Assembly: GCA_037446795.1 (NCBI GenBank)
Contig: JBBIHW010000001.1
Coordinates: 1 to 31,157, forward strand
DNA: 31,157 bases
Direction: 5' to 3'
DNA from: Acidobacteriota bacterium
GTDB taxonomy: Bacteria > Acidobacteriota > Polarisedimenticolia > Polarisedimenticolales > JBBIHW01
Below, in pieces: positions 7,429 to 31,157 of the stretch. The notes beneath the pieces were generated by a model. The model was not told where the DNA came from. It did not search any database and worked only from the letters and a program-made list of their open reading frames with translations. A program made the translations under genes and the position numbers. The stretch's first letter is position 1; the number at the start of each line of letters is the position of its first letter.

Positions 7429-7817
7429 AGAGGCTCCCGCTCTACGCCCTGGCTCACGCCCGGTCCGGGGACAAGGGCAACGGCTCGAACGTCGGCGTGC
7501 TCGCCTACGACGAGCGCGGCTACGGGATCCTGAAGGCGTTTCTCACGCCCGAGCGGGTCCGGGAGCACCTCAAGGGCATCGTGCGGGGCGCCGTGGAACG
7601 GTACGAGCTTCCGAACCTGCGCGGTCTGAACTTCATCCTCCACGATTCGCTGGGAGGCAGCGGGTCGGCGAGCCTCAAGAACGACGCGCAGGGGAAGACC
7701 CACGCGATGGCGCTGCTGCGGATGATGGTGGAGGTCCCGGACGACTACGAGCCGCCGCGCGTCGGGACGGCGGGGCCCTTGTCTCCCGGCGGCGAGCTCG
7801 GCGGGCTGACGCCGTGA
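7425..7817 (+). CDS. AtuA C-terminal-domain-like small protein
   Basis: TTG start overlaps the upstream TGA (TTGA) after GGAGG. Motifs AHARSGDKGN...YELPNL...LGGSG..SL..DAQGK match the C-terminal part of full-length AtuA. Confidence 0.8.
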   Translation: MKRLPLYALAHARSGDKGNGSNVGVLAYDERGYGILKAFLTPERVREHLKGIVRGAVERYELPNLRGLNFILHDSLGGSGSASLKNDAQGKTHAMALLRMMVEVPDDYEPPRVGTAGPLSPGGELGGLTP

Positions 7818-8596
7818 GCGCCTTCCGGTGGGTCTCGATGGAGGCCGCGGAGTCGGGCGTGCGGACCCTCACGCTCGCCCGGCCGCCGGTGAACGCCCTC
7901 GGTCGGGAGCTCGTCGAGGAGCTCGGCCGCGCCGTGGAGGCCGCCGCCGCCGACCGCGAAGCGCGCTGCCTCGTCGTTCGGACCGGCCTGGAGCACTTCT
8001 CGGCCGGCGCCGACCTCAAGGAGCGTCAGGCGATGTCGGTGGACGACGTCCGCGAGTACGTGCCCCGCCTCGCCTCGACGTTCGCGGCGCTGGCCTCGCT
8101 CCCGTTCCCCACGATCGCGGCGGTCCGCGGCACGGCCGTGGGCGGTGGGTGCGAGCTCGCCCTGGCCTGCGACCTGCGGGTCCTGTCCGAGGACGCTCGG
8201 ATCGGGCTGCGGGAGACCGCCCTCGCGATCCTGCCCGGCGCCGGGGGGACGCAGCGTCTCGCCCGCGTCGCGGGGCTCGCCCGCGCGAAGCGGTGGATCT
8301 TCACCGCGCGCCTGCACACCGCTCGAGAGGCGCTCGCCGACGGCGTCGCCGACGAGGTCGTCCCTGCCCGGGAGCTCGACGCGCGAGCGCTGGCCCTGGC
8401 CGCCGAGATCGCGGCCAACGGTCCCGTGGCGGTCCGGCTGGCGAAGCGGGCGATTGACGGGGGGTTCGGCCGACCGCTCGAGGAGGGTCTCCTGCTCGAG
8501 TGGGACTGCTACCAGGGAGTTCTCCACACCGAGGACAGGCTCGAGGCGCTGCGCGCCTTCGCCGAGAAGAGGCCGCCGAGGTTCACGGGACGCTGA
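7814..8596 (+). CDS. Enoyl-CoA hydratase/isomerase (crotonase) family, methylglutaconyl-CoA hydratase-like
   Basis: FSAGADLKE, GGGCELALACDLR and ETALAILPGAGGTQRL (both catalytic Glu present). GTGA overlap with the upstream gene. Confidence 0.9.
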   Translation: MSAFRWVSMEAAESGVRTLTLARPPVNALGRELVEELGRAVEAAAADREARCLVVRTGLEHFSAGADLKERQAMSVDDVREYVPRLASTFAALASLPFPTIAAVRGTAVGGGCELALACDLRVLSEDARIGLRETALAILPGAGGTQRLARVAGLARAKRWIFTARLHTAREALADGVADEVVPARELDARALALAAEIAANGPVAVRLAKRAIDGGFGRPLEEGLLLEWDCYQGVLHTEDRLEALRAFAEKRPPRFTGR

Positions 8597-8641
8597 CGGC
8601 GGCCTCTGCCCGCGAGGGGCGGCGCGAGCCGGTCGCGGCTG

Positions 8642-8669
8642 TTGAGTCCCCGCGAGAGCGATGTACAGT
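8642..8669 (+). promoter_or_regulatory. Candidate sigma70 promoter for the M24 peptidase
   Basis: TTGAGT (8642-8647), 16-nt spacer, TACAGT (8664-8669), 46 nt before ATG 8716. Confidence 0.45.
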
Positions 8670-8715
8670 AGGCGCGCGGAGGGCGACCGCCCGGGAGGCG
8701 CCGCGAGCCGTGCCG

Positions 8716-9900
8716 ATGAAGCTCGAGGCCATCCAGGCCGCACTCAGGGAGGCCGGGCTCGACGGCTGGCTGTTCTGCGACTTCCACCATCGCGACCTCA
8801 TGGCCTACCGCATCCTCGACCTGCCCACCTCGGGCATGACGACGCGGCGGTGGTTCTACTGGGTCCCCGCCGAGGGCGCTCCCGTGAAGCTCTGCCACCG
8901 CGTGGAGCCGCGCAAGCTCGAGGCGCTGCCCGGCCGGCAGGAGCACTTCCTCTCCTGGCAGGAGCTGCACGAGAAGCTGCGCGAGGCGCTCGGGCCGCCC
9001 TGCCGCCTGGCGATGCAGTACTCGCCCATGAACCACATCCCGTACGTTTCGGTCGTGGACGCGGGCACGGTGGAGCTCGTGCGCTCGTTCGGCCACGAGG
9101 TGGTCAGCTCCGCCGACCTCGTCCAGCGGTTCGAGGCGGTCCACGGGAGCGAGGGCTGGGAGAGCCACACCTGGGCGGGCGAGCGTGTGCAGCGCATCAA
9201 GGACGAGTCCTTCGCCCTGATGGACGGGGCGCTCCGGCGCGGCAAGCCCCTCAGCGAGCACGACGTGAAGGAGTTCATCCTCGCGCGCTTCCGCGACGAG
9301 GGGCTCACCAGCGACGGGGAGAGCCCGATCGTGGCCTTCGACGATCATGCAGCGGACCCGCATTTCGAAACGACGCGGGAGGGGGCCTACGGGCTTCGGC
9401 CCGGCCGGGCGATCCTCGTGGACCTGTGGGCCAGGCGCGCCGAGCCGCCGGGCATTTACTACGACATCACCTGGTGCGGCTTCGCGGGCGCCGAGCCGCC
9501 GGCGCGGCTGCGGGAGATCTTCGAGGTCGCCTGCCGCGCCCGCGATCGCGCCCTCGCGCTTCTGGAGGAGCGGTTCCGTGCGGGACGCGCGGTGCACGGA
9601 TTCGAGGTGGACGATGCCTGTCGCGAGGTCGTCCGCGAGGCGGGCTACGGCGCGTTCTTCCTCCACCGCACCGGGCACAGCATCGGGACGTCGGTACACG
9701 GCAACGGGGCCAACCTCGACAACCTGGAGACCCGCGACGAGCGGCGCCTCGTTCCGGGTGTCTGCTTCTCCGTCGAGCCGGGCATCTACCTCGAGGGGGA
9801 GATGGCCGTCCGCACGGAGATCAACGTGTTCCTGGCGCACGACGGCCGCCCGCACGTGTTCGGGCCGGTCCAGGATGCGCTAGTCCTCGTGGGCGCGTAG
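8716..9900 (+). CDS. M24 family metallopeptidase (Xaa-Pro amino/dipeptidase-like)
   Basis: Pita-bread metal ligands VDLW, YYDIT, HRTGHSIG, SVEPGIY and RTEIN. ATG 8716 (MKLEAIQ) is preferred over the track start at 8500. Confidence 0.88.
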   Translation: MKLEAIQAALREAGLDGWLFCDFHHRDLMAYRILDLPTSGMTTRRWFYWVPAEGAPVKLCHRVEPRKLEALPGRQEHFLSWQELHEKLREALGPPCRLAMQYSPMNHIPYVSVVDAGTVELVRSFGHEVVSSADLVQRFEAVHGSEGWESHTWAGERVQRIKDESFALMDGALRRGKPLSEHDVKEFILARFRDEGLTSDGESPIVAFDDHAADPHFETTREGAYGLRPGRAILVDLWARRAEPPGIYYDITWCGFAGAEPPARLREIFEVACRARDRALALLEERFRAGRAVHGFEVDDACREVVREAGYGAFFLHRTGHSIGTSVHGNGANLDNLETRDERRLVPGVCFSVEPGIYLEGEMAVRTEINVFLAHDGRPHVFGPVQDALVLVGA

Positions 9901-10521
9901 ACACCAGTCCGCGGCTTCGACCACGCGCGCCGCCGCCTCGGTCACGCGCCCCTCGAACAGGTGCGAAGCTCCCGGGACCTCGTAGAGACGCGCCAGAGGT
10001 GCGAGGGGAGCGATCGCGACCCGCACCTCCCGGGGCGGGCCGAACTCGTCCGCGCCGCCCTGAACGACCGCGAGCGGCCGGGACGTCCTGCGGATCTCTT
10101 CGTGAGGCAGGTACCGGAGCGGCAAGCCGAGCGCCACGAGGCCCCTGGCTGCAGGCTCGCGCGCCGCGTAGCGGATCGCGCAGGAGGCCCCGAACGACGT
10201 GCCGACGAGGAGGAGGGGGAGCCCGTGCGCGATCCTCCGGAGCCACGCCGCCGCCGCCGCCAAGTCGTCCACCTCGCCCCTTCCCTCGTCGTGAAGCCCG
10301 TCGCTCGAGCCAGCGCCCCTGAAGTTGAACCTCAGGGTCAGGAACCCCGCACGGTTCAGCTCGCGGTCTGCGTGGAAGACGACCGGGTTGTGCAGCGAGC
10401 CTCCGAAGAGAGGATGCGGGTGGGCGAGGACGGCCGCAGCGCGAGCCGGCAGGGCGAGCCGGAAAGCCGCCTCCAGCCGGCCGGCCGGCCCCTCGATCCA
10501 GAGCCTGGCGGGGTCGCCCAA
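9880..10521 (-). CDS. Alpha/beta-fold hydrolase
   Basis: HPHPLFGGSLHNPVV, FNFRGAGSSDG, nucleophile elbow GTSFG, QGGADEF and GASHLF. TTG start at 10521 lies 5 nt after GGAGG. Confidence 0.87.
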   Translation of the reverse strand: MGDPARLWIEGPAGRLEAAFRLALPARAAAVLAHPHPLFGGSLHNPVVFHADRELNRAGFLTLRFNFRGAGSSDGLHDEGRGEVDDLAAAAAWLRRIAHGLPLLLVGTSFGASCAIRYAAREPAARGLVALGLPLRYLPHEEIRRTSRPLAVVQGGADEFGPPREVRVAIAPLAPLARLYEVPGASHLFEGRVTEAAARVVEAADWCLRAHED

Positions 10522-10685
10522 GGCGTCCTCCGTTCGAGGTCCGCACGCGAAGCATAGCGAGGGCGGCGTTTCCGCGCGACGAGCCGTGGCGTTGCACAGG
10601 GGCAACGCCCGACGGTGCCGAGCGGAGCTCGGTCCCTACCTTATTCTGATCGGGGTCCCGCGACGCCTCCGGGGGAGCGTTCGGC

Positions 10686-11201
10686 ATGGCGACGCGCGCG
10701 AGAGGTCGGCGGTCCGCGTGGACGCGCCGGCTGGCCGGCGGGATCTGGCTCGGCGCCTGGATCGTGGTCCTCTACCTCATGGCCGCGCCCTGGAGAGATC
10801 TCGGCGGGATCGAGGAGGAGAGACTGCGCTGGCTGGAGGGGTTCGTGCTCCTCGCAGGCGTCTCCGTGGGCTTCACCCTGGGCCGCTTCGGCCGCGACAT
10901 GGCGGTGGCCGGCACGGGACGCACCCACGCCCAGCTCTTGCGGTTCGTCCTTTACCCGCCCGCGATCCTGACCGCGGCGGCGCTCATCGCGCTCTCGTTC
11001 CTGGGCGAGCGCGGTGCGGTCGGGGTCACGGCAACGGCGTTCCTCGCCTACTGGGCCGGCCTCGACCTCGCCTTCGGCGCGGTTCCGCTGATGGAAGGAA
11101 GGCCCTATGCCTTCGATCGCCCGCTGGAAGGGGATCCGGAGGAGCTGGAGGACCCCGCTCGGTCCGAGGAGAGCTGGGTTCCTCCGTGGGAGAGACCGTA
11201 G
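10686..11201 (+). CDS. Hypothetical membrane protein (about 4 hydrophobic segments, acidic C-tail)
   Basis: ATG with upstream GGGGAG, GC3-rich codons, four hydrophobic stretches. No recognised family. Confidence 0.7.
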   Translation: MATRARGRRSAWTRRLAGGIWLGAWIVVLYLMAAPWRDLGGIEEERLRWLEGFVLLAGVSVGFTLGRFGRDMAVAGTGRTHAQLLRFVLYPPAILTAAALIALSFLGERGAVGVTATAFLAYWAGLDLAFGAVPLMEGRPYAFDRPLEGDPEELEDPARSEESWVPPWERP

Positions 11202-19895: not shown

Positions 19896-20297
19896 ATGCG
19901 ACCGCGCTGGGACGTTCTGGTCGTGGACGACGAGGAGGTCGTCAGGAGCGGCGTGTCGCGGGTGCTCTCCGAAGCGGGCTACGAGGTCGCGACCGCGGCC
20001 GACGGCACCGCCGCCCTCGCGCACCCGGCGGCCTCCTCGTGTCGGCTCGTCCTGCTGGACCTGATGCTCCCCGACAGGTCCGGCATCGGCCTGCTCGAGG
20101 CTCTGCGCGAGCTGCGGCCCGACCGGCCGGTGGTCGTGATCACCGGCTACGCCACCTCCGAGAGCCTCGCGCGAGCTCTCGAGGCGGGCGCCGCCAGCGT
20201 GCTGGCGAAGCCGTTCGACGCCGCGGAGCTCCTCGATGCGGTCCGAACCGCCCTCGCCGAGACCGCTCCGGCGGGCGCCAGGAGGGATCCACCATGA
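19896..20297 (+). CDS. Single-domain response regulator (receiver only)
   Basis: VVDDE, LLDLMLP, ITGY and KPF; 133 aa with no output domain. Confidence 0.88.
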   Translation: MRPRWDVLVVDDEEVVRSGVSRVLSEAGYEVATAADGTAALAHPAASSCRLVLLDLMLPDRSGIGLLEALRELRPDRPVVVITGYATSESLARALEAGAASVLAKPFDAAELLDAVRTALAETAPAGARRDPP

Positions 20298-21403
20298 CCG
20301 CGCTGCTCGTCCTGCTCCTGTTCGCCGGCTTCGCCGTCGTGGACATCCTGGTGCGGGTCGGGGCGCGCCGCCTCGCGCAGGCGCGCGCGCGCCGGGAGCG
20401 GGAGGCCATCCTCGCCACCTCCGTCCGCCTGGACTTCACCCAGGAGGCGCCCACCCTCAAGCGGGTGGAGGTGCCGGACGCGCTCGCGCGCATCCTGGCC
20501 GTGGACGACGAGCCGATCGTCCTCGACAGCTTCCGGAAGATCCTGGTTCTCGCCGGCTTCAGCGTGGATACGGTGGAGAGCGGCCCGGAAGCCCTCGGCC
20601 TCGTCCAGCGGCGCGACTACGACTTCGTGTTCACGGACCTCAAGATGCCCGGCATGGACGGGGTCGAGGTGGTCAAGGCGGTGCACCACCTGCGGCCCGA
20701 CGTGGACATCGCCGTCATCACCGGCTACGGGACCATCGAGTCGGCGGTGGAAACCATGCAGCACGGAGCCGTGGACTACGTCCAGAAGCCGTTCACGGAG
20801 GAGGAGCTGGTGGCCTTCGCCCGCAGACTGCTCCTCCGGCGGCAGGCGCGCCTCGAGCGCGAGCGACGTCCCTCGGTGCGGCTGGTGGCCCCGGCCCTCG
20901 CCGACGCGGCGCCCGGCGGCGAGTACCGGGTCCCGGGCGGCGTGTTCCTCTCCGAGGGGCACACCTGGGCTCGGATCGAGCCCGACGGCAACGTCCGGGT
21001 GGGCCTCGACGACTTCGCGCGCCGGGCGCTGGGGCCCATCGAGCGCGTCGAGGCGGCAGCCCGCGGGACCGCCGTGCGGCGCGGGGAGACCCTCTTCACG
21101 GTTCGGAGCGGGAACCGGGCGGCGCGCCTTCCGGCTCCGTTGAGCGGGCGCGTGGTTCGCGTTCACGAGGCGCTCGCCCGCGACGGCTCTCCGGTGAGCG
21201 AGAGCCCGTACGAGCGCGGCTGGGTGGTCGTGCTCGAGCCCGCGAACCTCGCCCGGGAACTCCCCGGGCTCAGGATCGGCGGCCCCGTGGTCGCCTGGTA
21301 CCAGGAAGAGATCGCACGCCTCCGGCAGATGGGCGAGGTGCCGGAGGACTGGTCGGCGTTCGAGAGCGAGTTCCTGCGCGCCCGCACGGCGACTCCGATC
21401 TGA
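20294..21403 (+). CDS. Membrane-anchored response regulator fused to a glycine-cleavage H-protein-like domain
   Basis: N-terminal hydrophobic helix; receiver AVDDE...TDLKMP...ITGY...KPF; then GHTWAR...VGLDDFA..ALG...APLSGRV...SPYERGW (GcvH fold). ATGA overlap. Confidence 0.87.
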   Translation: MTALLVLLLFAGFAVVDILVRVGARRLAQARARREREAILATSVRLDFTQEAPTLKRVEVPDALARILAVDDEPIVLDSFRKILVLAGFSVDTVESGPEALGLVQRRDYDFVFTDLKMPGMDGVEVVKAVHHLRPDVDIAVITGYGTIESAVETMQHGAVDYVQKPFTEEELVAFARRLLLRRQARLERERRPSVRLVAPALADAAPGGEYRVPGGVFLSEGHTWARIEPDGNVRVGLDDFARRALGPIERVEAAARGTAVRRGETLFTVRSGNRAARLPAPLSGRVVRVHEALARDGSPVSESPYERGWVVVLEPANLARELPGLRIGGPVVAWYQEEIARLRQMGEVPEDWSAFESEFLRARTATPI

Positions 21404-22062: not shown

Positions 22063-22536
22063 ATGGCCGACAGCGAGATCGAATCGGGCGCCCTCGCGAG
22101 GGAGTTCGAGCGCGCCCTCGAGGAGCACCGGGAGTGCATGCGGCGGGTCGCCGAACTCGAGTCGTGCCTCGGCGAGCGGGCCGATTCCGAGCTCCGATCC
22201 CTCGGCGAGCTGCGCGGCTGCCTCGCCGCCGTCTCGGAAACGTTTCGCGCCCACTTCGCCTCGGAACAGCAAGGCCCGCTCTTCCGCGAGTTCCCCGCCA
22301 CGTTTCCGCAGTTCTCCTTCCGGCTCGGAAAACTCGCGACCGAGCACGCGACGCTGCTCGCCGAGGCGGCCGAGCTCGAGGCTCGAGTCGAGCAGCTGCG
22401 CGAGGCCCACGCCCGCGAGATGCGCTCCATCGAGGCCCGCGTGCGCCTGCTCGTCGCGAGGCTGCGGCGCCACGAGGCGGAGGAGGACGAGATCCTCCTC
22501 AGCGCCTACTGGGACGACGCCGGCCTCGGAGACTGA
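22063..22536 (+). CDS. Hemerythrin/HHE cation-binding domain protein
   Basis: Helical protein with EH...HFASE...EH...HEAEE (H, HxxxE, H, HxxxE pattern). Confidence 0.78.
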
Positions 22537-22585: not shown

Positions 22586-22622
22586 CGAGACCGACGGCGT
22601 CCGATGGAGACGCCCGGTCTCG
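22586..22622. repeat. Strong inverted repeat/hairpin, possibly a terminator or operator
   Basis: CGAGACCG-AC-GGCGTC-loop(7)-GACGCC-CGGTCTCG: 14 bp with a 2-nt bulge. It lies between the hemerythrin stop and the sigma54 motif. Confidence 0.5.
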
Positions 22623-22637
22623 GGCACACTTTGTGCT
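22622..22637 (+). promoter_or_regulatory. Sigma54 -24/-12 promoter for the kor-hdr-flx operon
   Basis: GGGCACACTTTGTGCT shows GGCAC...TGC with GG-N10-GC spacing, about 55 nt before GTG 22692. Confidence 0.55.
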
Positions 22638-22691: not shown

Positions 22692-23003
22692 GTGCTCGGG
22701 ACGCTGGCGCGAGAGGCGGGCCGCGAGCGGCGTCCGGTCGTCCGGAGGCCGCCGCCCGTCCGCGGATCCGTCCACATCCGACCGGACCGCTGCAAGGGCT
22801 GCGGCTTCTGCGTCGAGTTCTGCCCGAACGACGTGCTCGTGCTCTCGAGCGAGTTCAACGCGAAGGGGTTCCACTACCCCGTCGTCGTCGCGGATGCGTG
22901 CGTGGACTGCAAGCTGTGCACGCGCCTCTGCCCCGAGTACGCGATCTTCTCCACGCCGCTGCCCGAGGGCGCTCGCCCGGCGGGAGCGGGGAGGAACCCG
23001 TGA
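22692..23003 (+). CDS. korD: 2-oxoacid:ferredoxin oxidoreductase delta subunit (2x[4Fe-4S] ferredoxin-like)
   Basis: [12 protein letters not shown]...FNAKGFHYP...[19 protein letters not shown] after GGGAGG; GTGA overlap with the alpha subunit. Confidence 0.85.
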
Positions 23004-24190
23004 GCGACGGCGGCCTTCTGACCGGAGAACACTTCATGCTGGGCGACGACGCGCTCGCCGAAGGGGCGATCGCCGCGGGGTGCAGGTTCTTCGCTGGCTA
23101 CCCGATCACACCCTCCACCGAGACGGCGGAGCGGATGGCGAGGAGGATGCCGCAGGTCGGAGGGGTCTACCTCCAGATGGAAGACGAGATCGCCTCCATC
23201 GCCGCGATCCTGGGGGCCGCCTGGGCCGGCGCGAAGGTCATGACGGCGACCTCGGGCCCGGGCTTCTCCCTCATGCTGGAAAACCTCGGTCTCGGCATCA
23301 TCACCGAGACCCCCGCGGTCATCTGCAACGTGCAGCGGGCCGCCCCCTCCACGGGGCTGCCGACCCTCGTGGGTCAGGGCGACATGCAGCAGGCCCGCTG
23401 GGGTTCCCACGGCCACTACGAGATCATCGCGCTCGCGCCCTGGACCGCGCAGGAGTGCTTCGACCTGACGGTGCGCGCCTTCAACCTGGCGGAACGGTTC
23501 CGTCTGCCGGTGCTCGTGATGGCGGACGCCGAGGTCGGCCACCTGACCGAGAAGGTCGTCATCCCGCCGCCGGACATGCTCGAGGTCTGGGACCGCCCGG
23601 CGCCGGCCGAGCCCCCCGACCGTTTCGACCCGAGCGCGACGAGGGACCTCGTCCCGCCGATGCCGAAGGCGGGCGACGGCTACCACGTGTTCGTGGAGAG
23701 CCTCACCCACGACGAGCGCGGCTATCCGGTCATGACCGCCGAGGCGCAGGGCAAGCTCGTGCGCCGGCTCGTCGCCAAGATCCAGGAGAACCGGGCGTGG
23801 ATCGAGGACGTGGACGAGCGCGGGGTCGCCGAGGCCGAGGTGATCGTCGTCTCCTACGGCATCTCCGCGCGCGTCGCGACGCGGGCGATCGAGCGGGCGC
23901 GGCGGCGCGGCCTCGCCGCGGGGCTCCTGCGGCTGCGCACCGTGTGGCCCTTCCCGGACCAGAGGATCCGGGCGCTGTCGGCCCGGGTGCGCGGCTTCGT
24001 CGTCCCCGAGATCAACCTGGGGCAGATCGTCCGGGAGGTGGAGCGGTGCGCCGTCGACCGCTGCCGCGTCGCGCTGGTCCCTCACGCGGGAGGGGCGCTG
24101 CACGATCCCGAGGAGATCGCCGACGCCATCGCCGCGGTCGCGGCGGGCCGCGCCCCCTGTCGCGGGGAGCTCGCCGGGCGAGGAGCCTGA
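23000..24190 (+). CDS. korA: 2-oxoacid:ferredoxin oxidoreductase alpha subunit (four-subunit Kor/Oor type)
   Basis: [35 protein letters not shown] and [10 protein letters not shown]. Substrate specificity is not determinable. Confidence 0.9.
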
Positions 24191-24191
24191 G

Positions 24192-26195
24192 GTGGCGCGG
24201 ATCGGCGTGTTCGTCTGCCACTGCGGGGAGAACATCGCCCGCACGGTGGACGTGGCGCGCGTGGCCGGCGAGGCGCGGAAGATGCCCGGGGTCGCCTTCG
24301 CCACCGACTACCTTTACATGTGCTCGGCGCCGGGCCAGAAGCTGCTCGCCGAAGCGATCGCCGAGCACGGCCTGACCGGTGTCGTCGTCTCCGCCTGTTC
24401 GCCGCAGCTCCACGAGCCGACCTTCCGCGCGGCGGCGGCGCAGGCCGGCCTCAACCCGTTCCTCTGCGAGATGGCCAACATCCGGGAGCAGTGCTCCTGG
24501 GTGCATCCGTCCCGGGAGGCGGGGACCGCCAAGGCGTGCCGGCTGGTCGCCGCCGCCGTCGAGAAGGTCCGCCACGCGCGGCCGCTCGAGCCGGCGGGGG
24601 TGCCCGTCACCCGCAGGGCCCTCGTGATCGGGGGCGGGGTGGCCGGCATCCGGGCGGCGCTGGACATCGCCTCGGCAGGTCACGAGGTCGTGCTCGTGGA
24701 AAAGCAGCCCTCGATCGGCGGCAACATGGCGCGCCTGTCCGAGACGTTCCCGACGCTCGACTGCTCGCAGTGCATCCTCACGCCGCTCATGGTAGAGGCG
24801 GCGCGCCACCCGAACATCGAGTTGCTGACCTCCGCGGAGGTGGAGGAGGTCGGCGGCTACGTGGGCTCCTTCCGCGTGCGCATCCGCAGGAAGCCCGCCT
24901 ACGTGAAGCCCGACCTCTGCACAGCATGCGGGGACTGCGCGTCGGCCTGTCCCGTGTCGGTGCCCAACGAGTTCGACCGCGGCCTGTCCTGGCGCAAGGC
25001 GATCTACATCCCGTTCCCTCAGGCCGTGCCCGCCACCTACACCCTCGACGCGAACAGCTGCCTCAACGCCAAGCAGGAATCGGCGACCGGCTACCGCGTG
25101 CTCGCCTGCGAGAGGTGCGCGGAGGCATGCGACCGGCAGGCCATTGACTACGACGCCCGGCCGGAGATCCTCGAGCGGGAGGTGGGCGCCATCGTCGCGG
25201 CCACCGGCTACGAGCTGCTGCCCCGCGGCTCGCTCGAGGAGTACGGCTACGGTCGCTACGCGGACGTCGTGGACGGCCTGGAGTTCGAGCGGCTGCTGTC
25301 GGCCTCGGGACCGACCGAGGGGGAACTCCGCAGGCCCTCGGACGGGCGCCCGGTGCGCGACGTGGTGTTCGTGCAGTGCGCGGGCTCGCGCGACCCGCGC
25401 CGCGGCGTGCCGTACTGCTCGCGCATCTGCTGCATGGTGACCGCGAAGCATGCGCTGCTGTTCAAGCACAAGGTCGCCGACGGGCGCGCCACGGTCTTCT
25501 ACATGGACATCCGCGCCGGAGGAAAGGGGTACGAGGAATTCGTCCGGCGCGTCATGGAGGAGGAGCGCGTCCTGTACGTCCGCGGGCGTGCGAGCCGCGT
25601 GGTACCGCACGACGGCGAGCTGGTGGTGTTCGGCGCGGACACGCTGTCCGGGCAGCCCGTGCAGGTGCGGGCCGATCTCGTGGTCCTGGCCACCGCGATG
25701 ACGCCCGCGCCGGGCGACCTCGCGGCCCGCCTCCGGATCCCCACGGACCCGCACGGCTTCTTCCAGGAGGCCCACCCGAAGCTCCGGCCTGTGGAGACCC
25801 TCGCCGCGGGGGTCTACGTCACGGGCGCCGCGCAGGCCCCCAAGGACATCCCGGACACGGTGGCGCAGGCCTCGGCCGCCGCCTCGAAGGCGCTCGAGCT
25901 GCTGTCCAGGACCGAGCTGCGGCGCGAGCCGACGACCGCCCGCGTCCGCGAGGCGCGCTGCATGGCCTGCTTCGAGTGCGCCCGGGTCTGCCCGTACAAG
26001 GCCGTCGCCGTCGAGGAGATCCGCGACCGGGAAGGGAAGGTCGTCAGGCAGGTGGCCGCCGTGCGGGTCGCGATGTGCGAGGGGTGCGGTGCGTGCGTGG
26101 GTGCGTGCAGGACCGGGGCGATGGACCTGGACGGGTTCGCGGACGAGCAGCTGTTCGCCCAGATCGAGGCGCTCGCGCGGAGGGAGGCGGCGTGA
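24192..26195 (+). CDS. hdrA: Heterodisulfide reductase subunit A (FAD, Fe-S; flavin-based electron bifurcation)
   Basis: RIGVFVCHCG, CSP..HE..FR, NIREQCSWVH, GGGVAG, TFPTLDCSQC, inserted ferredoxin CTACGDC..CP, CSRICCM and C-terminal ferredoxin motifs. Confidence 0.95.
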   Translation: MARIGVFVCHCGENIARTVDVARVAGEARKMPGVAFATDYLYMCSAPGQKLLAEAIAEHGLTGVVVSACSPQLHEPTFRAAAAQAGLNPFLCEMANIREQCSWVHPSREAGTAKACRLVAAAVEKVRHARPLEPAGVPVTRRALVIGGGVAGIRAALDIASAGHEVVLVEKQPSIGGNMARLSETFPTLDCSQCILTPLMVEAARHPNIELLTSAEVEEVGGYVGSFRVRIRRKPAYVKPDLCTACGDCASACPVSVPNEFDRGLSWRKAIYIPFPQAVPATYTLDANSCLNAKQESATGYRVLACERCAEACDRQAIDYDARPEILEREVGAIVAATGYELLPRGSLEEYGYGRYADVVDGLEFERLLSASGPTEGELRRPSDGRPVRDVVFVQCAGSRDPRRGVPYCSRICCMVTAKHALLFKHKVADGRATVFYMDIRAGGKGYEEFVRRVMEEERVLYVRGRASRVVPHDGELVVFGADTLSGQPVQVRADLVVLATAMTPAPGDLAARLRIPTDPHGFFQEAHPKLRPVETLAAGVYVTGAAQAPKDIPDTVAQASAAASKALELLSRTELRREPTTARVREARCMACFECARVCPYKAVAVEEIRDREGKVVRQVAAVRVAMCEGCGACVGACRTGAMDLDGFADEQLFAQIEALARREAA

Positions 26196-27613
26196 ACGGG
26201 ACCCTGCTCGAGATCGGGCCGCCCGCGGCGCGGGAGGAGCGGTCGGGGTTCGAGCCCGTGGTCGTGGCCATCGTGTGCAACTGGTGCACGTACGCGGGAG
26301 CCGACATGGCGGGGACGACGCGCAGGGCGTACCCGCCGAACGTGCGGCTGCTGCGCGTGCCGTGCACGGGACGCGTCAGCCCTCTGCAGGTCCTCAAGGC
26401 TTTCGAGCAGGGCGCGGACGGCGTGCTCGTGTCCGGCTGCCATCCCGGCGACTGCCACTACGTCCACGGGAACCTCGTCGCACGCAGGCGCCTCGCGATC
26501 CTCCGGGCGCTGCTCGACTTCGTCGGCCTCGACGCGCGGCGCTTCCACGTCTCGTGGGTGTCCGCCTCCGAGGGGGTCCGCTGGGCGCGCGTGGTCGAGA
26601 CGGTGACCCGTGCCGTGCGGGAGGCGGGGCCCCTCGACGCCTGGAGTCCCCGGGACGGCGAAGAGCCGGTCCGGCTCCCCGAGCCGCCCCCCGCCCCGTC
26701 TCCCCCCGCGTCGCCGGAGGAGCAGGAGGCGGTCGGCCGCAACCTGCGATCGCTCGCCGCGAGCCTCCTCGGGGAGGGCCGAGTGACCGTCTTCCTCGGC
26801 TACGGGGAGGCGACCCTTCCCGGCCGCGCCGTCCCGCTGCTCGCCACGGACCTCGCGGAAGCCAGCGCGCTGGTCTGGAACGACCGCTGCCACTCGAACC
26901 TCGCCGTGTACCTCGCCGGGCCGAACCGCGTCCCGGGGAAGGTCGCGGTCGTCCTCAAGGCCTGCGACGCGCGCGCGGTCATCGGGCTGCAGCAGGAAGG
27001 GCAGCTCCGGCGCGAGGACTTGGTCCTGGTCGGCGTGCGCTGCCCGGGAGTCCGCGAGGAGGACGGCCGGCTCGCGCTCAAGTGCCATGCCTGCGACGGG
27101 GAGGTCGCCGCGGGCTGCGACTTCACCGTGTCGGCCGATGGGGTGGAGACGGGCGCTGCGAGGTCGGCCGCTCCGCGCGCGGTGGCCCCGGACCCGCGCG
27201 ACGCCGCGATCGCCTTCCTCGAAGGGCTCCCTCCCGCGCGGCGCTGGGCGTTCTGGCGAGAGCAGTTCGACCGGTGCCTGCGGTGCTACGCGTGCCGTGC
27301 GGTCTGCCCGCTCTGCTACTGCGGCACCTGCATCAGCGAGCACCACCGGCCGCAGTGGATCCCCGCGTCCATCGGCCCGCGCGGGAACGCCTCGTGGAAC
27401 GCGATCCGGGCGTATCACCTCGCGGGCCGCTGCGCGGGCTGCGACGAGTGCACGCGGGCGTGCCCCGCGCGGCTGCGGCTCGACCTCCTCAACCGCCGCC
27501 TCGCCCTCGAGGTGGAGCGGCGGTTCGGCTACCGCGCGGGGGAGGACCCGAGCGCGGCGCCGCCCCTCGCCGCCTTCCGTCCGGAGGATCCGCAGGAGTT
27601 CGTCCACGCATGA
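26192..27613 (+). CDS. flxCD: MvhD/FlxD [2Fe-2S] domain fused to an FlxC-like 4Fe-4S domain (FlxCD fusion)
   Basis: CNWCTYAGAD, VPCTGRV and GCHPGDCHY (MvhD), then a Pro-rich linker, then CLRCYACRAVCPLCYC and HLAGRCAGCDECTRACP. Confidence 0.85.
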   Translation: MNGTLLEIGPPAAREERSGFEPVVVAIVCNWCTYAGADMAGTTRRAYPPNVRLLRVPCTGRVSPLQVLKAFEQGADGVLVSGCHPGDCHYVHGNLVARRRLAILRALLDFVGLDARRFHVSWVSASEGVRWARVVETVTRAVREAGPLDAWSPRDGEEPVRLPEPPPAPSPPASPEEQEAVGRNLRSLAASLLGEGRVTVFLGYGEATLPGRAVPLLATDLAEASALVWNDRCHSNLAVYLAGPNRVPGKVAVVLKACDARAVIGLQQEGQLRREDLVLVGVRCPGVREEDGRLALKCHACDGEVAAGCDFTVSADGVETGAARSAAPRAVAPDPRDAAIAFLEGLPPARRWAFWREQFDRCLRCYACRAVCPLCYCGTCISEHHRPQWIPASIGPRGNASWNAIRAYHLAGRCAGCDECTRACPARLRLDLLNRRLALEVERRFGYRAGEDPSAAPPLAAFRPEDPQEFVHA

Positions 27614-28677
27614 GCACCGCCTTCGATCGAAACGGGAGCTGGTCGCTGGACGCGGCCGATCTGCGAGCATGGATCGGAGGGCTCGTCGGCTCGGGCGCGC
27701 GCGTCGTGGCGCCCGCCGAGCGGGAGGGGCTGTGGACCTTTCGCCCGCTGCGCTCCGGCGAGGAGCTGGCGCTTCCCGCCGGATTCCCCGCGTGGTCGCC
27801 GAAGGAGTTCCTGTTCCCGAGGACGGAGACCCTGTTCCGGTACGAGTCGTCCGGAGGCGAGCCGGGGCTCGAGGATCCGGTGCGCGAGGACGTTCCGCAG
27901 GTCCTGTTCGGCCTGGCTCCGTGCGACGCCGCGGGGCTCGTCCGGCTCGACGCGGTGCTCGGCGCCGACCCGGCCTACGCCTCGCGCCGGGCGCTCACGA
28001 CGGTCGTCACGCTCGCCTGCGACGCGGCCCGCCCGGAATGCTTCTGCACCACGGTGGGCGGGAGCCCCCACGGCGAAGAAGGCGGCGATCTCCTCCTCGT
28101 CCCGAGCGACGGGGCCTTCCTGCTGCGGCCGCTCACCCGGAAGGGGACCGAGCTCGCGGCGGGGGCGTCGGCGAGCTGGGCGCCAGCGACCGCCGAGGCA
28201 TGGGAGCGCGCCCGAGCTCGCCTCCGCGAGGTCGCCGAGGCGGTGGGCCGGAGCCCTCTCGCGCATGGATTCGCCGAAGGGCTCGAGCGGCGGTTCGGCT
28301 CCCGGGCCTGGCAGCAGGTCGGCCGGCGCTGTCTCGGCTGCAGCATCTGCACCTACGTGTGCCCCTCCTGCTCCTGCTTCGACATCCAGGACGAGGGCTC
28401 GCCGGGCTGCGGGCGGCGCTGCCGGATCTGGGACAGCTGCACCTTCGGCCTGTTCACGCTGCACGCCTCCGGCCACAACCCCCGCCCGAACCAGGCGGCG
28501 CGCTACCGGCAGCGCGTGCTCCACAAGTTCAGCAGCTACCCGCTCGAGCACGGAGGGGTCCCGATGTGCGTCGGCTGCGGCCGGTGCGTGCGCCTGTGTC
28601 CGGCGGGCCTCGACGTGCGGGAGACCGTCGAGCGGGTCCTCGCCGAGGGAAAGGAGCCCCGGCATGCCGGCCCCTGA
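27610..28677 (+). CDS. flxB: FlxB/AsrA-like 4Fe-4S protein
   Basis: SPKEFLFP, PCD, CFC, CLGCSICTYVCPSCSCF, WDSC, RYRQR..HKF and CVGCGRCVRLCP. ATGA overlap. Confidence 0.85.
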   Translation: MSTAFDRNGSWSLDAADLRAWIGGLVGSGARVVAPAEREGLWTFRPLRSGEELALPAGFPAWSPKEFLFPRTETLFRYESSGGEPGLEDPVREDVPQVLFGLAPCDAAGLVRLDAVLGADPAYASRRALTTVVTLACDAARPECFCTTVGGSPHGEEGGDLLLVPSDGAFLLRPLTRKGTELAAGASASWAPATAEAWERARARLREVAEAVGRSPLAHGFAEGLERRFGSRAWQQVGRRCLGCSICTYVCPSCSCFDIQDEGSPGCGRRCRIWDSCTFGLFTLHASGHNPRPNQAARYRQRVLHKFSSYPLEHGGVPMCVGCGRCVRLCPAGLDVRETVERVLAEGKEPRHAGP

Positions 28678-29551
28678 CCCCGCCTCGGCCCCGTCGCTCT
28701 CCCGCGAGGCGCCGGGAAACGGGAACGCGAGCCCGTTCCGGCCCCGCCTGTTCCGGATCGCGAGCTATCGGGACGAAACACCCGACGTGCGGACGTTCCG
28801 GCTCGAGCGGGCCGACGGGGGAGGGCCGCTTCGCTGGAGGCCGGGACAGTTCGTTCACGTCTCGGTGTTCGGTGCGGGCGAGGCGGTCTTCACCCTCGCC
28901 AGCTCGCCCTCCCGCGGCGAGACGGTGGAGTGCACGGTCCGCGCGGTGGGCAAGGTGACCGAGGCGCTGCGCGGCCTCGGCGAGGGGGACGTCGTCGGCG
29001 TGCGCGGCCCCTATGGAACTGCGTTTCCGGTGGACGAGTGGCGCGGATCCGACCTGGCGTTCGTCGGCGGCGGGATCGGCATGGCCGCGCTCCGGGCGCC
29101 GCTGCAGTGGGTGCTCGATCACCGGGAGGAGTACGGCGAGATCGTCGTCCTGAACGGCGCGCGCACCGTGGCCGACCTGGCCTACAAGGACGAGATGGGC
29201 GAGTGGGGCGCGGTACCCGCGACGCGCGTGGTCCGGACCGTGGATCCCGGAGGCGAGAGCCCGGGCTGGGACGGGGAGGTGGGCCTCCTGCCGCAGGTGT
29301 TCGAGAGGCTCGCTCTCGCCCCGCAGGGGCGGATCGTGGTCACGTGCGGCCCGCCGGTGATGCTCCACTACATGTTCCTCGCCCTCGGGCGCATGGGCTA
29401 CGCGCCCGAGCGCGTGGTGACGACGCTCGAAAACAAGATGAAGTGCGGGTTGGGCCTGTGCGGGCGCTGCAACGTGGGGCGCTTCTTCGTGTGCACGGAC
29501 GGCCCCGTGGTGACGTGGGCGAGGCTCCAGGGCCTGCCCGAGGACCTCTGA
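28664..29551 (+). CDS. flxA: FlxA/AsrB-like FAD/NAD(P)-binding oxidoreductase with [2Fe-2S]
   Basis: PGQFV, VRGPYG, GGGIGMAAL, CGPPVM and KMKCGLGLCGRCNVG...CTDGPV. AAGGAG SD. Confidence 0.9.
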   Translation: MPAPDPASAPSLSREAPGNGNASPFRPRLFRIASYRDETPDVRTFRLERADGGGPLRWRPGQFVHVSVFGAGEAVFTLASSPSRGETVECTVRAVGKVTEALRGLGEGDVVGVRGPYGTAFPVDEWRGSDLAFVGGGIGMAALRAPLQWVLDHREEYGEIVVLNGARTVADLAYKDEMGEWGAVPATRVVRTVDPGGESPGWDGEVGLLPQVFERLALAPQGRIVVTCGPPVMLHYMFLALGRMGYAPERVVTTLENKMKCGLGLCGRCNVGRFFVCTDGPVVTWARLQGLPEDL

Positions 29552-30465
29552 TGGAGGAAGGCATGAGGCTCGCGCGGGAGTGCGAGGAGGAGCCGGCGGA
29601 GCGGAGCTGGGCGCCGCAGGCGCTCGAGGGCGCGTTCGAGCACCCGGTGGAGGAGGCGCTTCGCAAGGACCGCCTCCCCCACATCTGGTGCCCCGGATGC
29701 GGCATCGGGACGGCGATGGGCGCCTTCATCGAGGCCCTCGACGACGCCGGCATCGTCCGCGACCGGCTGGCGATGGTGTCGGGCATCGGCTGCAGCGGCC
29801 GCGTGTCCGGCTATACCGACTGCGACAGCTTCCACACGACCCACGGCCGCGCGATCCCCTTCGCCCTCGGCCTCCACGTGGCGAACCCGGATCTGGAGGT
29901 CGTGGTCTTCAGCGGGGACGGCGACCTGGTGGCGATCGGGGGCAACCACCTCCTGCACGCAGCGCGTCGCAACGCGGACATCACCGTGATCTGCGTGAAC
30001 AACTTCAACTACGGGATGACCGGGGGTCAGCACGGCCCCACGAGCCATCCCGGCGCCCGCACGACCACCACACCGTACGGGAACCTGGAGCCGGCCTTCA
30101 ACCTGCCGCTGCTCGTGGGGGCGGCCGGGGCCACGTACGTGGCCCGCTGGACGGTGCTCGACCTCGGTCGCCTCAGGCGGTCCATCGCGGAGGCCCTGAG
30201 GCACGTCGGCTTCGCCTTCGTCGAGATCCTCTCGCCGTGCCCGATCTACTACGGCCGGTTCAACCGGAAGGCCGAGGCGCTCGACGAACTGCGGTCGTAC
30301 CAGGATCGGACCGAGGTCAAGAACTTCGCTCCCCTCGAAGAGTGCGCCCTGACCATGGACGGCAAGATCGTCGTCGGCAAGCTCGTCGAGCGCCGGGCCC
30401 CCACCCTCGTGGAGCTGGTCCGCGGCGAGCTGCCCCGGAGGGCGCTCGTGCGGGGCGGGAGGTAG
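29551..30465 (+). CDS. korB: 2-oxoacid:ferredoxin oxidoreductase beta subunit (TPP-binding)
   Basis: WCPGCG, SGIGCS, HTTHGRA and GDGD...NN..YGMTGGQ. TGATG overlap with flxA; ATG 29563 is an alternative start. Confidence 0.92.
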   Translation: MEEGMRLARECEEEPAERSWAPQALEGAFEHPVEEALRKDRLPHIWCPGCGIGTAMGAFIEALDDAGIVRDRLAMVSGIGCSGRVSGYTDCDSFHTTHGRAIPFALGLHVANPDLEVVVFSGDGDLVAIGGNHLLHAARRNADITVICVNNFNYGMTGGQHGPTSHPGARTTTTPYGNLEPAFNLPLLVGAAGATYVARWTVLDLGRLRRSIAEALRHVGFAFVEILSPCPIYYGRFNRKAEALDELRSYQDRTEVKNFAPLEECALTMDGKIVVGKLVERRAPTLVELVRGELPRRALVRGGR

Positions 30466-30469
30466 CCCG

Positions 30470-31045
30470 ATGGCCTCGAAGGGTCACGCGGAGGTGCGGA
30501 TCAGCGGCTTCGGCGGGCAGGGGGTCGTCCTGGCGGGCATCGTGCTGGGCCGCGCCGCTGCCGTCCACGAAGGGCGCAATGCCGTCCTCGCCCAGAGCTA
30601 CGGCCCCGAGTCGCGCGGCGGCGCCTCGTGCGCGGAGGTGGTCATTGACGACGGCGACATTGACTACCCGCACGTGGTGTCGCCGGACGTGGTCGTCGCC
30701 CTCTCGCAGCAGGCTTATGCGACCTACGGGGTGCGGCGTCCCGAGGGCGCGCTGCTCATCGCGGAAGAAGACCTGGTCGAGCTCGATTCCGAGGCGGAGC
30801 GGGGCCGGAGGGTGCTCCGCGGGCGCTTCACCGCGATCGCCGAGCAGGTCGGCCGGCGGATCGTCCTCAACATGGTGGCGCTCGGGTTCCTGGTCGGCGC
30901 CACCGAGATCGTCTCCCGAGAGGCGGCGCGCGACGCGATCGCGGCCACGGTGCCCCGGGGAACCGAGGAGCTGAACCTGCGCGCCTTCGACGAGGGCTAC
31001 GCCCTCGGCGCGCGGGCCACCGCACAGGAGGAGGCGCGGCGATGA
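30470..31045 (+). CDS. korC: 2-oxoacid:ferredoxin oxidoreductase gamma subunit
   Basis: SGFGGQGVVLAG, QSYGPESRGGAS, NMVALG and NLRAFDEG. Confidence 0.92.
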   Translation: MASKGHAEVRISGFGGQGVVLAGIVLGRAAAVHEGRNAVLAQSYGPESRGGASCAEVVIDDGDIDYPHVVSPDVVVALSQQAYATYGVRRPEGALLIAEEDLVELDSEAERGRRVLRGRFTAIAEQVGRRIVLNMVALGFLVGATEIVSREAARDAIAATVPRGTEELNLRAFDEGYALGARATAQEEARR

Positions 31046-31157
31046 TCCAGTCGCCCCGCCCGCCTGCGGACCTGGCTGCCGCCCACGAGCTCTGGGCGTG
31101 CTACCAGTGCGGCAAGTGCACCGCCGACTGCCCGTTCGGCCTGAGCCCGAGCCTCGT
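31042..31157 (+). CDS. hdrC: HdrC-like 4Fe-4S protein, truncated by the window end
   Basis: ATGA overlap with korC after GGAGGAGG. MIQSPRPPADLAAAHELWACYQCGKCTADCPF resembles the HdrC motif CYQCGKCTAGCP. Only 38 codons are visible. Confidence 0.6.
   Translation, partial: MIQSPRPPADLAAAHELWACYQCGKCTADCPFGLSPSL

Follow-up and report, generated by a model that had tools for sequence, protein, structure and literature searches.

The closest described relatives of the gene cluster analysed here come from tubeworm symbionts (Ca. Endoriftia and the Escarpia symbiont) and Thioflavicoccus mobilis, in which Rubin-Blum et al. (2019; PMC6315080) reported a "conserved interspersing" of korABCD and tfrAB with flxABCD-hdrABC, in the order frdBA-hdrC-hdrB-korDABC-hdrA-flxDCBA-aclBA-idh, and proposed a complex that bifurcates directly onto 2-oxoglutarate:ferredoxin oxidoreductase (OGOR) and thiol:fumarate reductase. 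Operon-like co-expression of this cluster in Endoriftia was reported by Mitchell et al. (2024; PMC11636981), and the same cluster was noted in Bipolaricaulia UBA7950 (bioRxiv 10.1101/2023.11.26.568696). Here we describe an operon at positions 22692-31157 of a 31,157-nt stretch of Acidobacteriota DNA (the window) that combines the genes of a KorAB-type 2-oxoacid:ferredoxin oxidoreductase (OFOR; hereafter Kor) with hdr and flx genes. The window is the entire contig C1 (JBBIHW010000001.1) of a metagenome-assembled genome (MAG; GCA_037446795.1; 457 contigs, 90.8% complete). The operon is real and conserved, and it is probably functional; we put at about one half the probability that its nine genes encode one NAD(P)H-fed, HdrA-centred bifurcating unit whose low-potential outlet serves KorDABC, most likely a 2-oxoglutarate enzyme. 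An earlier interpretation of the bare DNA (the sequence-only reading) knew of no described arrangement of this kind, a claim overtaken by the 2019 account, which already has kor interspersed with hdr, flx and tfr genes and direct bifurcation onto OGOR. What is new beyond that proposal is the split kor order, its breadth and the window's subtype without TfrAB or DsrC.

Parts of the same machinery are known from other systems. In Pseudoclostridium thermosuccinogenes a "succinate operon" consists of fumarate hydratase, Flx-Hdr and a novel fumarate reductase, for which coupling was proposed (Koendjbiharie et al. 2020; PMC7282089). The methanogen Hdr super-assemblies (PMC13518236) provide a precedent for an HdrA low-potential outlet wired directly to a CO2-fixing enzyme.

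In the window, korD-korA-hdrA-flxDC-flxB-flxA-korB-korC and a truncated ninth gene form an unbroken series on the plus strand (22692-31157), as determined by frame analysis, inspection of starts and Pfam/NCBIfam scans. The window has a G+C content of 72%, so raw lists of open reading frames (ORFs) were full of spurious frames, and genes were called by combining third-position G+C per frame with start-codon inspection and the Pfam/NCBIfam scans. Calling on third-position G+C only was dropped, as antisense frames score equally high at this composition, and a codon-usage scorer trained on the operon took its place. The series opens with korD (22692..23003), which encodes a 103-aa delta subunit with two 4Fe-4S motifs (Fer4_7, and OGOR_delta below the curated cut-off) and occupies the same position in every split-order locus, and korA (23000..24190), which encodes a 396-aa KorAB-type alpha subunit (POR_N and PFOR_II; 538 bits with NCBIfam PRK08659, cut-off 411). 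It continues with hdrA (24192..26195), whose 667-aa product is a full-length flavoprotein of the bifurcation type (HdrA2 model, 810 bits), and with flxDC (26192..27613), a 473-aa fusion of an MvhD/FlxD-like 2Fe-2S part with an Fe-S domain like FlxC and the FdhB C-terminus (FlpD, 160 bits). The next genes are flxB (27610..28677), for a 355-aa AsrA/HydB-like Fe-S subunit (Fer4_22; ShyB, HydB and AsrA models) whose length and 4-nt overlap are identical in the related locus L002, and flxA (28664..29551), for a 295-aa HydG/AsrB-like, FAD- and NAD(P)H-binding 2Fe-2S flavoprotein (FAD_binding_6, NAD_binding_1, DHODB_Fe-S_bind) that is presumed to be the NAD(P)H entry point. Last come korB (29551..30465), for the 304-aa beta subunit that binds thiamine pyrophosphate (TPP; TPP_enzyme_C), korC (30470..31045), for the 191-aa gamma subunit (POR, 104 bits; 222 bits with PRK08537, just under the cut-off of 235), and the first 38 codons of gene 9 (31042..31157), which overlaps korC by ATGA, carries a CxxCxxCxxxCP motif and runs off the contig end.

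Both enzyme sets are complete: all four Pfam architectures of a KorDABC enzyme (alpha, beta, gamma and delta) were found, as were FlxA, FlxB, a FlxC-type part and an MvhD-like FlxD, the last two in one protein of 473 aa. The korABCD genes are co-directional and interspersed with hdrA-flxABCD and the hdrC/CCG gene. Six junctions overlap (by 4, 4, 4, 14, 1 and 4 nt), the other two have gaps of 1 and 4 nt, and 5,360 nt separate korA from korB; the coordinates thus bear out the sequence-only reading, which had all junctions overlapping or at most 4 nt apart and about 5.4 kb of hdr/flx genes between the alpha and beta subunits. Its gene order also stands from korD through korC, and fails only for the last gene, which is a fused HdrC-CCG gene instead of a plain hdrC.

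The remainder of gene 9 (367 aa) was located by tblastn, with a close relative's ninth gene as query, at the end of contig C207 (L085:4953-6056, minus strand), a stretch that holds the sole CCG-domain gene of the genome. Gene 9 is an HdrC-like two-cluster domain fused to two CCG domains; the top NCBIfam family of its homologues is GlpC (full-length alignment, 197 bits against a cut-off of 278), not HdrB. It defines subtype A1, which comprises the eight loci of split kor order with a GlpC-like fusion as their last gene: the window, L002 and six more. In all eight subtype-A1 sequences the eight HdrC-type cysteines are retained, the first Cys of CCG motif 1 is replaced by Asp, and CCG motif 2 terminates in a single Cys. 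The window thus has no canonical HdrB with two complete CCG motifs and no separate HdrC, both of which are present in the subtype-A2 relatives described below. The hdrB gene predicted to lie downstream therefore exists as the CCG part of the fusion and not as a separate canonical HdrB, the fused protein being GlpC-like. A PDB sequence search returned no solved relative of the CCG half. The operon ends with this ninth gene, since the next gene on C207 encodes an MtrB/PioB-type porin. The porin gene, which follows gene 9 immediately and on the same strand (L085:1559-4921, minus strand), is an ORF of 1120 aa that scores 213 bits for the MtrB/PioB outer-membrane porin domain; its place beside the redox operon hints at extracellular electron transfer.

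The individual subunits were compared with solved structures. HdrA residues 3-663 align with chain A of 5ODC, a solved bifurcating HdrA, at 686 bits with the cluster-binding Cys motifs kept, and the alignment spans the N-terminal cluster motif as well as both ferredoxin domains, the inserted and the C-terminal one. The N-terminus of FlxDC matches MvhD of 7BKB and 5ODC, and its residues 354-466 match the C-terminal Fe-S domain of FdhB in 7BKB; MvhD and this FdhB domain are the two parts that supply HdrA in 7BKB, a complex from methanogens. The nearest solved relatives of KorA are 1YD7, a Pyrococcus furiosus 2-ketoacid enzyme, and the 2-oxoglutarate synthase 8YS5, of which chain C is the nearest solved relative of KorB. 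TfrAB adjacency in the A2 relatives and the neighbours of the published cluster, which belong to the reverse tricarboxylic acid (rTCA) cycle, also point to 2-oxoglutarate, and 2-oxoglutarate/succinyl-CoA is most likely the substrate pair.

HdrA homologues number in the thousands, and we surveyed 80 species genomes fetched around HdrA relatives by mapping the window proteins onto them. Among the 120 best HdrA hits, most of them without a source name, none bears a name that points to an isolate. The identical nine-gene order was found on contigs from two Joint Genome Institute (JGI) metagenomes (HdrA identity 88%) and on a complete 3.6-Mb Ca. Eisenbacteria chromosome (HdrA identity 78%), and the split order was found in about 20 other species genomes. 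These recurrences answer the question, raised with the sequence-only reading, whether the interleaved order is unique to this genome: it is not. That the MAG is in 457 fragments, with the operon interrupted where a contig ends, might suggest a misassembly or a one-off insertion; given the same order on independent JGI contigs, on the complete chromosome and in the other genomes, we rejected that explanation, the chance of which is next to nil.

The split order (type A; korDA - hdrA flxDCBA - korBC - hdrC...) spans eight named phyla or candidate phyla plus one MAG labelled Deltaproteobacteria. Its hosts are Ca. Eisenbacteria, Rokubacteria, Krumholzibacteriia, Binatia, Actinomycetota, the Deltaproteobacteria MAG, Armatimonadota (including Ca. 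Fervidibacter sinensis), Ignavibacteriales, Chloroflexota and Phycisphaeraceae (Planctomycetota). In subtype A2 (L008, L032, L040 and L043) the split set is followed by a separate canonical hdrC, hdrB, a gene for an Fe-S protein like the TfrB N-terminus and a gene for a TfrA-like flavoprotein. The Armatimonadota loci L029, L031 and L036-L038 have separate hdrC and hdrB genes and end before any tfr region is visible. Other arrangements are type B (korDABC - hdrA flxDCBA - fused HdrC-HdrB) in Thermoanaerobaculia and allied Acidobacteriota, type C with extra HdrA-like genes between kor and hdrA in Holophagae, and type D (hdrC hdrB hdrA flxDCBA korD korA...) in G037, a genome of the window's own taxonomic order (L105; G037:C51:1-14000), where hdrC-hdrB-hdrA-flxDC-flxB-flxA-korD-korA runs off the contig start. 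In all, the Kor-Hdr-Flx set occurs in four orders, including the published hdrCB-korDABC-hdrA-flxDCBA, across more than ten phyla, and the CCG protein is kept in all subtypes, at every locus whose sequence reaches that end of the cluster. Among loci with HdrA identity of at most 61% and a judgeable flank, all 38 have hdrCB-hdrA-flxDCBA without kor. In the literature found, neither the split kor order nor its wide distribution nor the GlpC-like subtype is reported, and the papers found on Sulfomarinibacter and Fervidibacter do not mention the Kor link.

Only two of 40 searched genomes from the window's own order and class carry a Kor-linked cluster, each in a different gene order, and the window proteins are closest to homologues from Ca. 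Eisenbacteria and Rokubacteria. This pattern points to lateral spread of the whole cluster. In G029, a genome of the same taxonomic order as the window, the cluster is 79% identical in nucleotides to one in a Thermoanaerobaculales MAG.

Some loci carry additional genes. In Fervidibacter-type Armatimonadota an insert of about 3 kb lies between hdrA and flxDC (L036:12010-14483; also L029, L031, L037 and L038), and the only one annotated, that of L036, encodes an Old-Yellow-Enzyme-type flavoprotein and an AraA-like protein; ahead of korB there is also another stretch with weak similarity to korB (34-38% identity). In the type C loci (L012:1-10000; also L014, L016 and L021; Holophagae/Thermoanaerobaculia) several extra genes separate korC from the main hdrA. 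Their products are an HdrA-like/Pyr_redox protein of 982 aa, an HdrC-CCG fusion, an Fe-S/MvhD protein, and HdrC and HdrB as separate proteins; the set has the appearance of a further Hdr module added on top of the first.

We then computed trees of HdrA and KorA, which do not include the gammaproteobacterial (Endoriftia/Thioflavicoccus) proteins. In the HdrA tree (82 rows) the Kor-linked sequences fall on one side of a branch with a support of 98% in the Shimodaira-Hasegawa-like approximate likelihood ratio test (SH-aLRT), and the Kor link is explained by a single state change; this count leaves out three type-C loci whose range stops short of kor, and rises to four if these are scored as kor-less. 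The Hdr-linked KorAs of all phyla likewise form one tight group, well apart from ordinary KorAB-type paralogues. Since the gene set stays together in four orders and more than ten phyla, and the Kor-linked HdrAs group together, a functional link between Kor and Hdr-Flx, as the sequence-only reading had supposed, is strongly backed. When the HdrA tree is rooted on the kor-less sequences, its earliest Kor-linked branches are the split-order Chloroflexota, Ignavibacteriales and Armatimonadota, and the contiguous type B is nested within the Kor-linked group, requiring one change. The split order thus looks ancestral in this sample, dependent on the rooting. To the 2019 proposal these results add more than ten phyla, four gene orders, a single HdrA group, an apparently oldest form that is split around hdrA-flx, and a subtype in which a GlpC-like subunit has taken the place of the HdrBC-TfrAB sink.

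No indel of note that would mark a docking site distinguishes Kor-linked from other HdrAs. Fifteen residues are diagnostic for Kor-linked versus kor-less HdrAs, and four of them lie inside the inserted ferredoxin domain (residues 269, 283, 292 and 304, codons within about 24996-25103; position 283 is Tyr versus Pro); they may mark a partner-specific surface. Several HdrA homologues from related genomes (G024:C96, G016:C29, G038:C102 and G036:C7) contain one in-frame TGA, probably coding for selenocysteine, which the window HdrA does not have.

These data bear on whether Kor and Flx-Hdr could instead be separate, co-regulated enzymes joined by a free ferredoxin carrier, so that there would be no supercomplex and the interleaving would have no structural meaning. 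In the Acidobacteriota type B, as in the gammaproteobacterial cluster of the literature, the four kor genes form a block of their own. As a ferredoxin-like subunit with two clusters, KorD is of an ordinary kind, no locus has a Kor-Hdr gene fusion and no clade-specific insertion was found in HdrA; the Flx-Hdr system of Desulfovibrio vulgaris is considered to work with free ferredoxin (Ramos et al. 2015). The maintenance of the korA/korB split across eight named phyla or candidate phyla and the Deltaproteobacteria-labelled MAG, apparently from the ancestor on, and the lack of a ferredoxin gene within the operon speak suggestively for a closer association. We regard separate enzymes as unlikely, although they keep a real claim to attention.

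Against this background the locus can be set beside the described systems. Like the tubeworm-symbiont cluster, it has a four-subunit Kor, HdrA, FlxABCD and an HdrC/CCG protein in a co-directional, operon-like arrangement, and it would follow the same idea of NADH bifurcation onto OGOR and a high-potential partner. It differs in that korDA and korBC are split by hdrA-flxDCBA, whereas the published kor genes are one block, in that FlxD and FlxC are fused and HdrC is fused to a GlpC-like CCG part with 4+4 CCG cysteines, and in that no tfrAB, acl or idh genes adjoin the operon (acl and idh are not found anywhere in the window). With D. vulgaris FlxABCD-HdrABC (Ramos et al. 2015) the window shares FlxA, FlxB, FlxC, FlxD, HdrA and HdrC-type domains and presumed NADH bifurcation; unlike that system, it has no canonical HdrB and no adh, DsrC and dsrA were not found, and a complete Kor is embedded. 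The P. thermosuccinogenes operon resembles the A2 relatives (L008, L032, L040 and L043) in pairing Flx-Hdr with a soluble fumarate reductase sink; it has no Kor, whereas the window has no fumarate reductase in or near the operon. With the methanogen assemblies of Hdr with Fdh or Mvh and Fmd or Fwd (5ODC, 7BKB; Nature 2026, PMC13518236) the window has in common a homologous full-length HdrA and input domains of the MvhD and FdhB types. Its electron donor would be NAD(P)H via Flx rather than H2 or formate and its partner a TPP-dependent OFOR rather than formylmethanofuran dehydrogenase, and it has neither a polyferredoxin nor the CoM-S-S-CoB heterodisulfide of coenzymes M and B.

The unit that we consider to have even odds could work as follows. 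FlxA would oxidise NAD(P)H and pass the electrons via FlxB, the FlxC-like domain and the MvhD-like domain to the HdrA flavin, where electron pairs would be split. One electron would travel uphill via an HdrA ferredoxin domain to KorD/KorB, where succinyl-CoA would be reductively carboxylated to 2-oxoglutarate; the other would run downhill over the gene 9 protein, by way of its HdrC-like clusters and CCG domains, to an acceptor of high potential. This acceptor may be a TfrAB-like fumarate reductase in the relatives with canonical HdrBC, and a quinone or an as yet nameless disulfide in the window's subtype. Because the A2 operons continue with hdrC, hdrB, TfrB-like and TfrA-like genes, they place both reductive steps flanking succinate on one operon, which fits NADH bifurcation onto Kor and fumarate in these relatives. 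The data show which genes are present, their operon structure, their conserved association and that the cofactor motifs are intact; bifurcation, the direction of the reaction, the substrate and the choice between a docked Kor and free ferredoxin we infer from sequence, and a physical supercomplex with KorD-HdrA wiring is purely conjectural.

Reductive carboxylation of succinyl-CoA requires electrons near -500 mV, and the supply of electrons at about this potential is a central question for the rTCA cycle and for anaplerotic synthesis of 2-oxoglutarate. If the scheme is correct, a Kor-wired Hdr-Flx would let ordinary NADH drive the carboxylation, paid for by a simultaneous downhill reduction, and would give bacteria a first counterpart to the Hdr-Fmd principle of methanogens. 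The Kor-Hdr-Flx pairing, which recurs in many phyla, probably drives this hard CO2-fixing step.

Several observations weigh against such a unit. The OGOR-specific NCBIfam models score under their cut-offs (alpha 331/579, beta 247/364, delta 69/125), so that the Kor substrate is likely rather than shown. Gene 9 has 4+4 CCG cysteines against the canonical 5+5 in the relatives' separate HdrB, which leaves the high-potential half without an identified acceptor in the window's subtype. DsrC (PF04358) was not found in the MAG, which at 90.8% completeness makes the absence no proof; dsrA (TIGR02064) was not found there either, in line with the sequence-only reading, which had seen no dsr genes in the window and had suggested looking beyond it. 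With neither in evidence, a disulfide may not be the partner at all. No TfrAB-like gene lies near the window operon, the porin following gene 9 on C207, and a close TfrA was not found in the MAG, where the best FrdA-like match has 35% identity over most of the query and a second is a 99-residue fragment (37%). A close TfrA is likewise missing from the complete Ca. Eisenbacteria genome, which shares the subtype (34%); a type-C Holophagae genome has a TfrA-like protein of 60% identity elsewhere on the chromosome. The search for ATP-citrate lyase (Citrate_bind, PF16114) in the genome gave no hit, but had no positive control and is hence uninformative. Many of the host phyla are, to our knowledge, not known as autotrophs, and the literature found holds no purification or assay, biochemical or structural, for any Kor-Hdr-Flx cluster.

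Some of these points could favour a system that does not bifurcate, namely a plain NAD(P)H:2-oxoacid oxidoreductase in which HdrA and the Fe-S subunits serve as a wire, comparable to NADH-dependent phenylglyoxylate dehydrogenase or the NADP-dependent 2-ketoglutarate oxidoreductase (KGOR) of Azoarcus, or, alternatively, a Kor for a 2-oxoacid outside the TCA cycle. It is established that some OFORs carry extra flavoprotein subunits and use NAD(P) directly, the PadE/G/I models matched weakly, the substrate-specific OGOR models stay under their cut-offs, and the degenerate CCG motifs could mean a vestigial high-potential branch. The CCG protein is nevertheless kept in all subtypes where the cluster end is reached, HdrA keeps all domains of the solved bifurcating enzyme, and the TfrAB partner of A2 gives a second branch a clear role. 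We consider this pair of alternatives very improbable.

The direction of electron flow has to be weighed separately. With standard potentials of -320 mV for NADH, about -520 mV for succinyl-CoA plus CO2/2-oxoglutarate and +30 mV for fumarate/succinate, bifurcation in the reductive direction would be exergonic and the reverse endergonic with a fumarate sink (the mean of -520 and +30 mV against -320 mV). In that reverse, confurcating direction, electrons from a 2-oxoacid and from a thiol or quinol would merge at HdrA to reduce NAD(P)+, giving two NAD(P)H per 2-oxoacid without free ferredoxin. The host probably belongs to a heterotroph-rich lineage, bifurcating enzymes are in principle reversible, and the uncontrolled search found no ATP-citrate lyase; furthermore, the MAG has one citrate synthase (besides one hdrA and one CCG protein) and the E1 component of 2-oxoglutarate dehydrogenase was not found in the genome, so some Kor must run oxidatively. 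Ordinary Kor loci are available for this oxidation, however: C36 (about 8026-10760) has a contiguous korDABC, and its start carries an FrdA-like fragment; C50 (about 3946-5698) has a two-gene korAB. With these two loci present and no 2-oxoglutarate dehydrogenase E1 found, the Hdr-linked Kor would be an extra, specialised enzyme, as in Endoriftia. The published clusters, in addition, have rTCA genes (aclAB, idh) as neighbours, with which they are co-expressed. Operation of the cluster towards NAD(P)H therefore appears unlikely, if still worth keeping in mind.

Returning to the bifurcating unit, the nature of its high-potential sink in the window's subtype is suggested by gene 9. The GlpC-like character of this protein, its incomplete CCG cysteines and the searches that found neither DsrC nor a close TfrA speak against a heterodisulfide of the classical kind, which leaves a quinone or another carrier as candidates. 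The subtype might then encode a ferredoxin-free, NADH-driven 2-oxoglutarate synthase that bifurcates NAD(P)H to a docked Kor and to (mena)quinone or another non-disulfide acceptor, a specific version that we consider distinctly doubtful. EtfABCX, which bifurcates NADH to ferredoxin plus quinone, follows a comparable logic. Were this version correct, it would represent a new class of Hdr-type bifurcating enzyme, with an "Hdr" module that has no heterodisulfide substrate.

The sequence-only reading had placed the operon behind one sigma54-type promoter. The motif itself is present (GGCAC-N5-GTGC at 22622..22637, plus strand, 55 nt upstream of korD), as is rpoN in the genome, but it is a weak candidate with two mismatches to TGGCAC-N5-TTGCW and is neither enriched nor conserved: the window holds 68 near-matches against 66 expected from shuffles, the closest relative does not conserve the -12 element, and no such motif was found before korD in 22 of the 23 other scannable loci. 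A sigma54 promoter for the operon is thus only a possibility. Among public runs we found no RNA sequencing run with this sequence; words sampled from it turned up, at 5-8%, in only four runs, all of them DNA metagenomes from hot springs.

The part of the window upstream of the operon contains a minus-strand gene for pyruvate:ferredoxin oxidoreductase (PFOR), a cytochrome c7/Fe-S/NrfD set, and genes for a sensor kinase, two receiver proteins and a hemerythrin-like protein. L002 has this neighbourhood too, minus the PFOR, whereas Ca. Eisenbacteria does not, and it therefore lies outside the conserved unit. The hemerythrin-like gene (22063-22536, plus strand; 157 aa), 155 nt upstream of korD and in the same place in L002 and L003 but not in Ca. 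Eisenbacteria, could encode an O2 or iron sensor or a protectant for an oxygen-sensitive operon. At 20294-21403 (plus strand) a receiver domain is fused to a GcvH-like domain (Response_reg and GCV_H), and the same fusion occurs upstream in L002 and L003. The PFOR is a large single-chain protein (POR, EKR, Fer4, TPP_enzyme_C; 11635 to about 15200, minus strand) divergent from the cytochrome c7/Fe-S/NrfD genes. Farther upstream (6061-8596, plus strand), AtuA, an AtuA ferredoxin-like protein and an enoyl-CoA hydratase are encoded in a small overlapping set that is unrelated to the Kor-Hdr-Flx operon.

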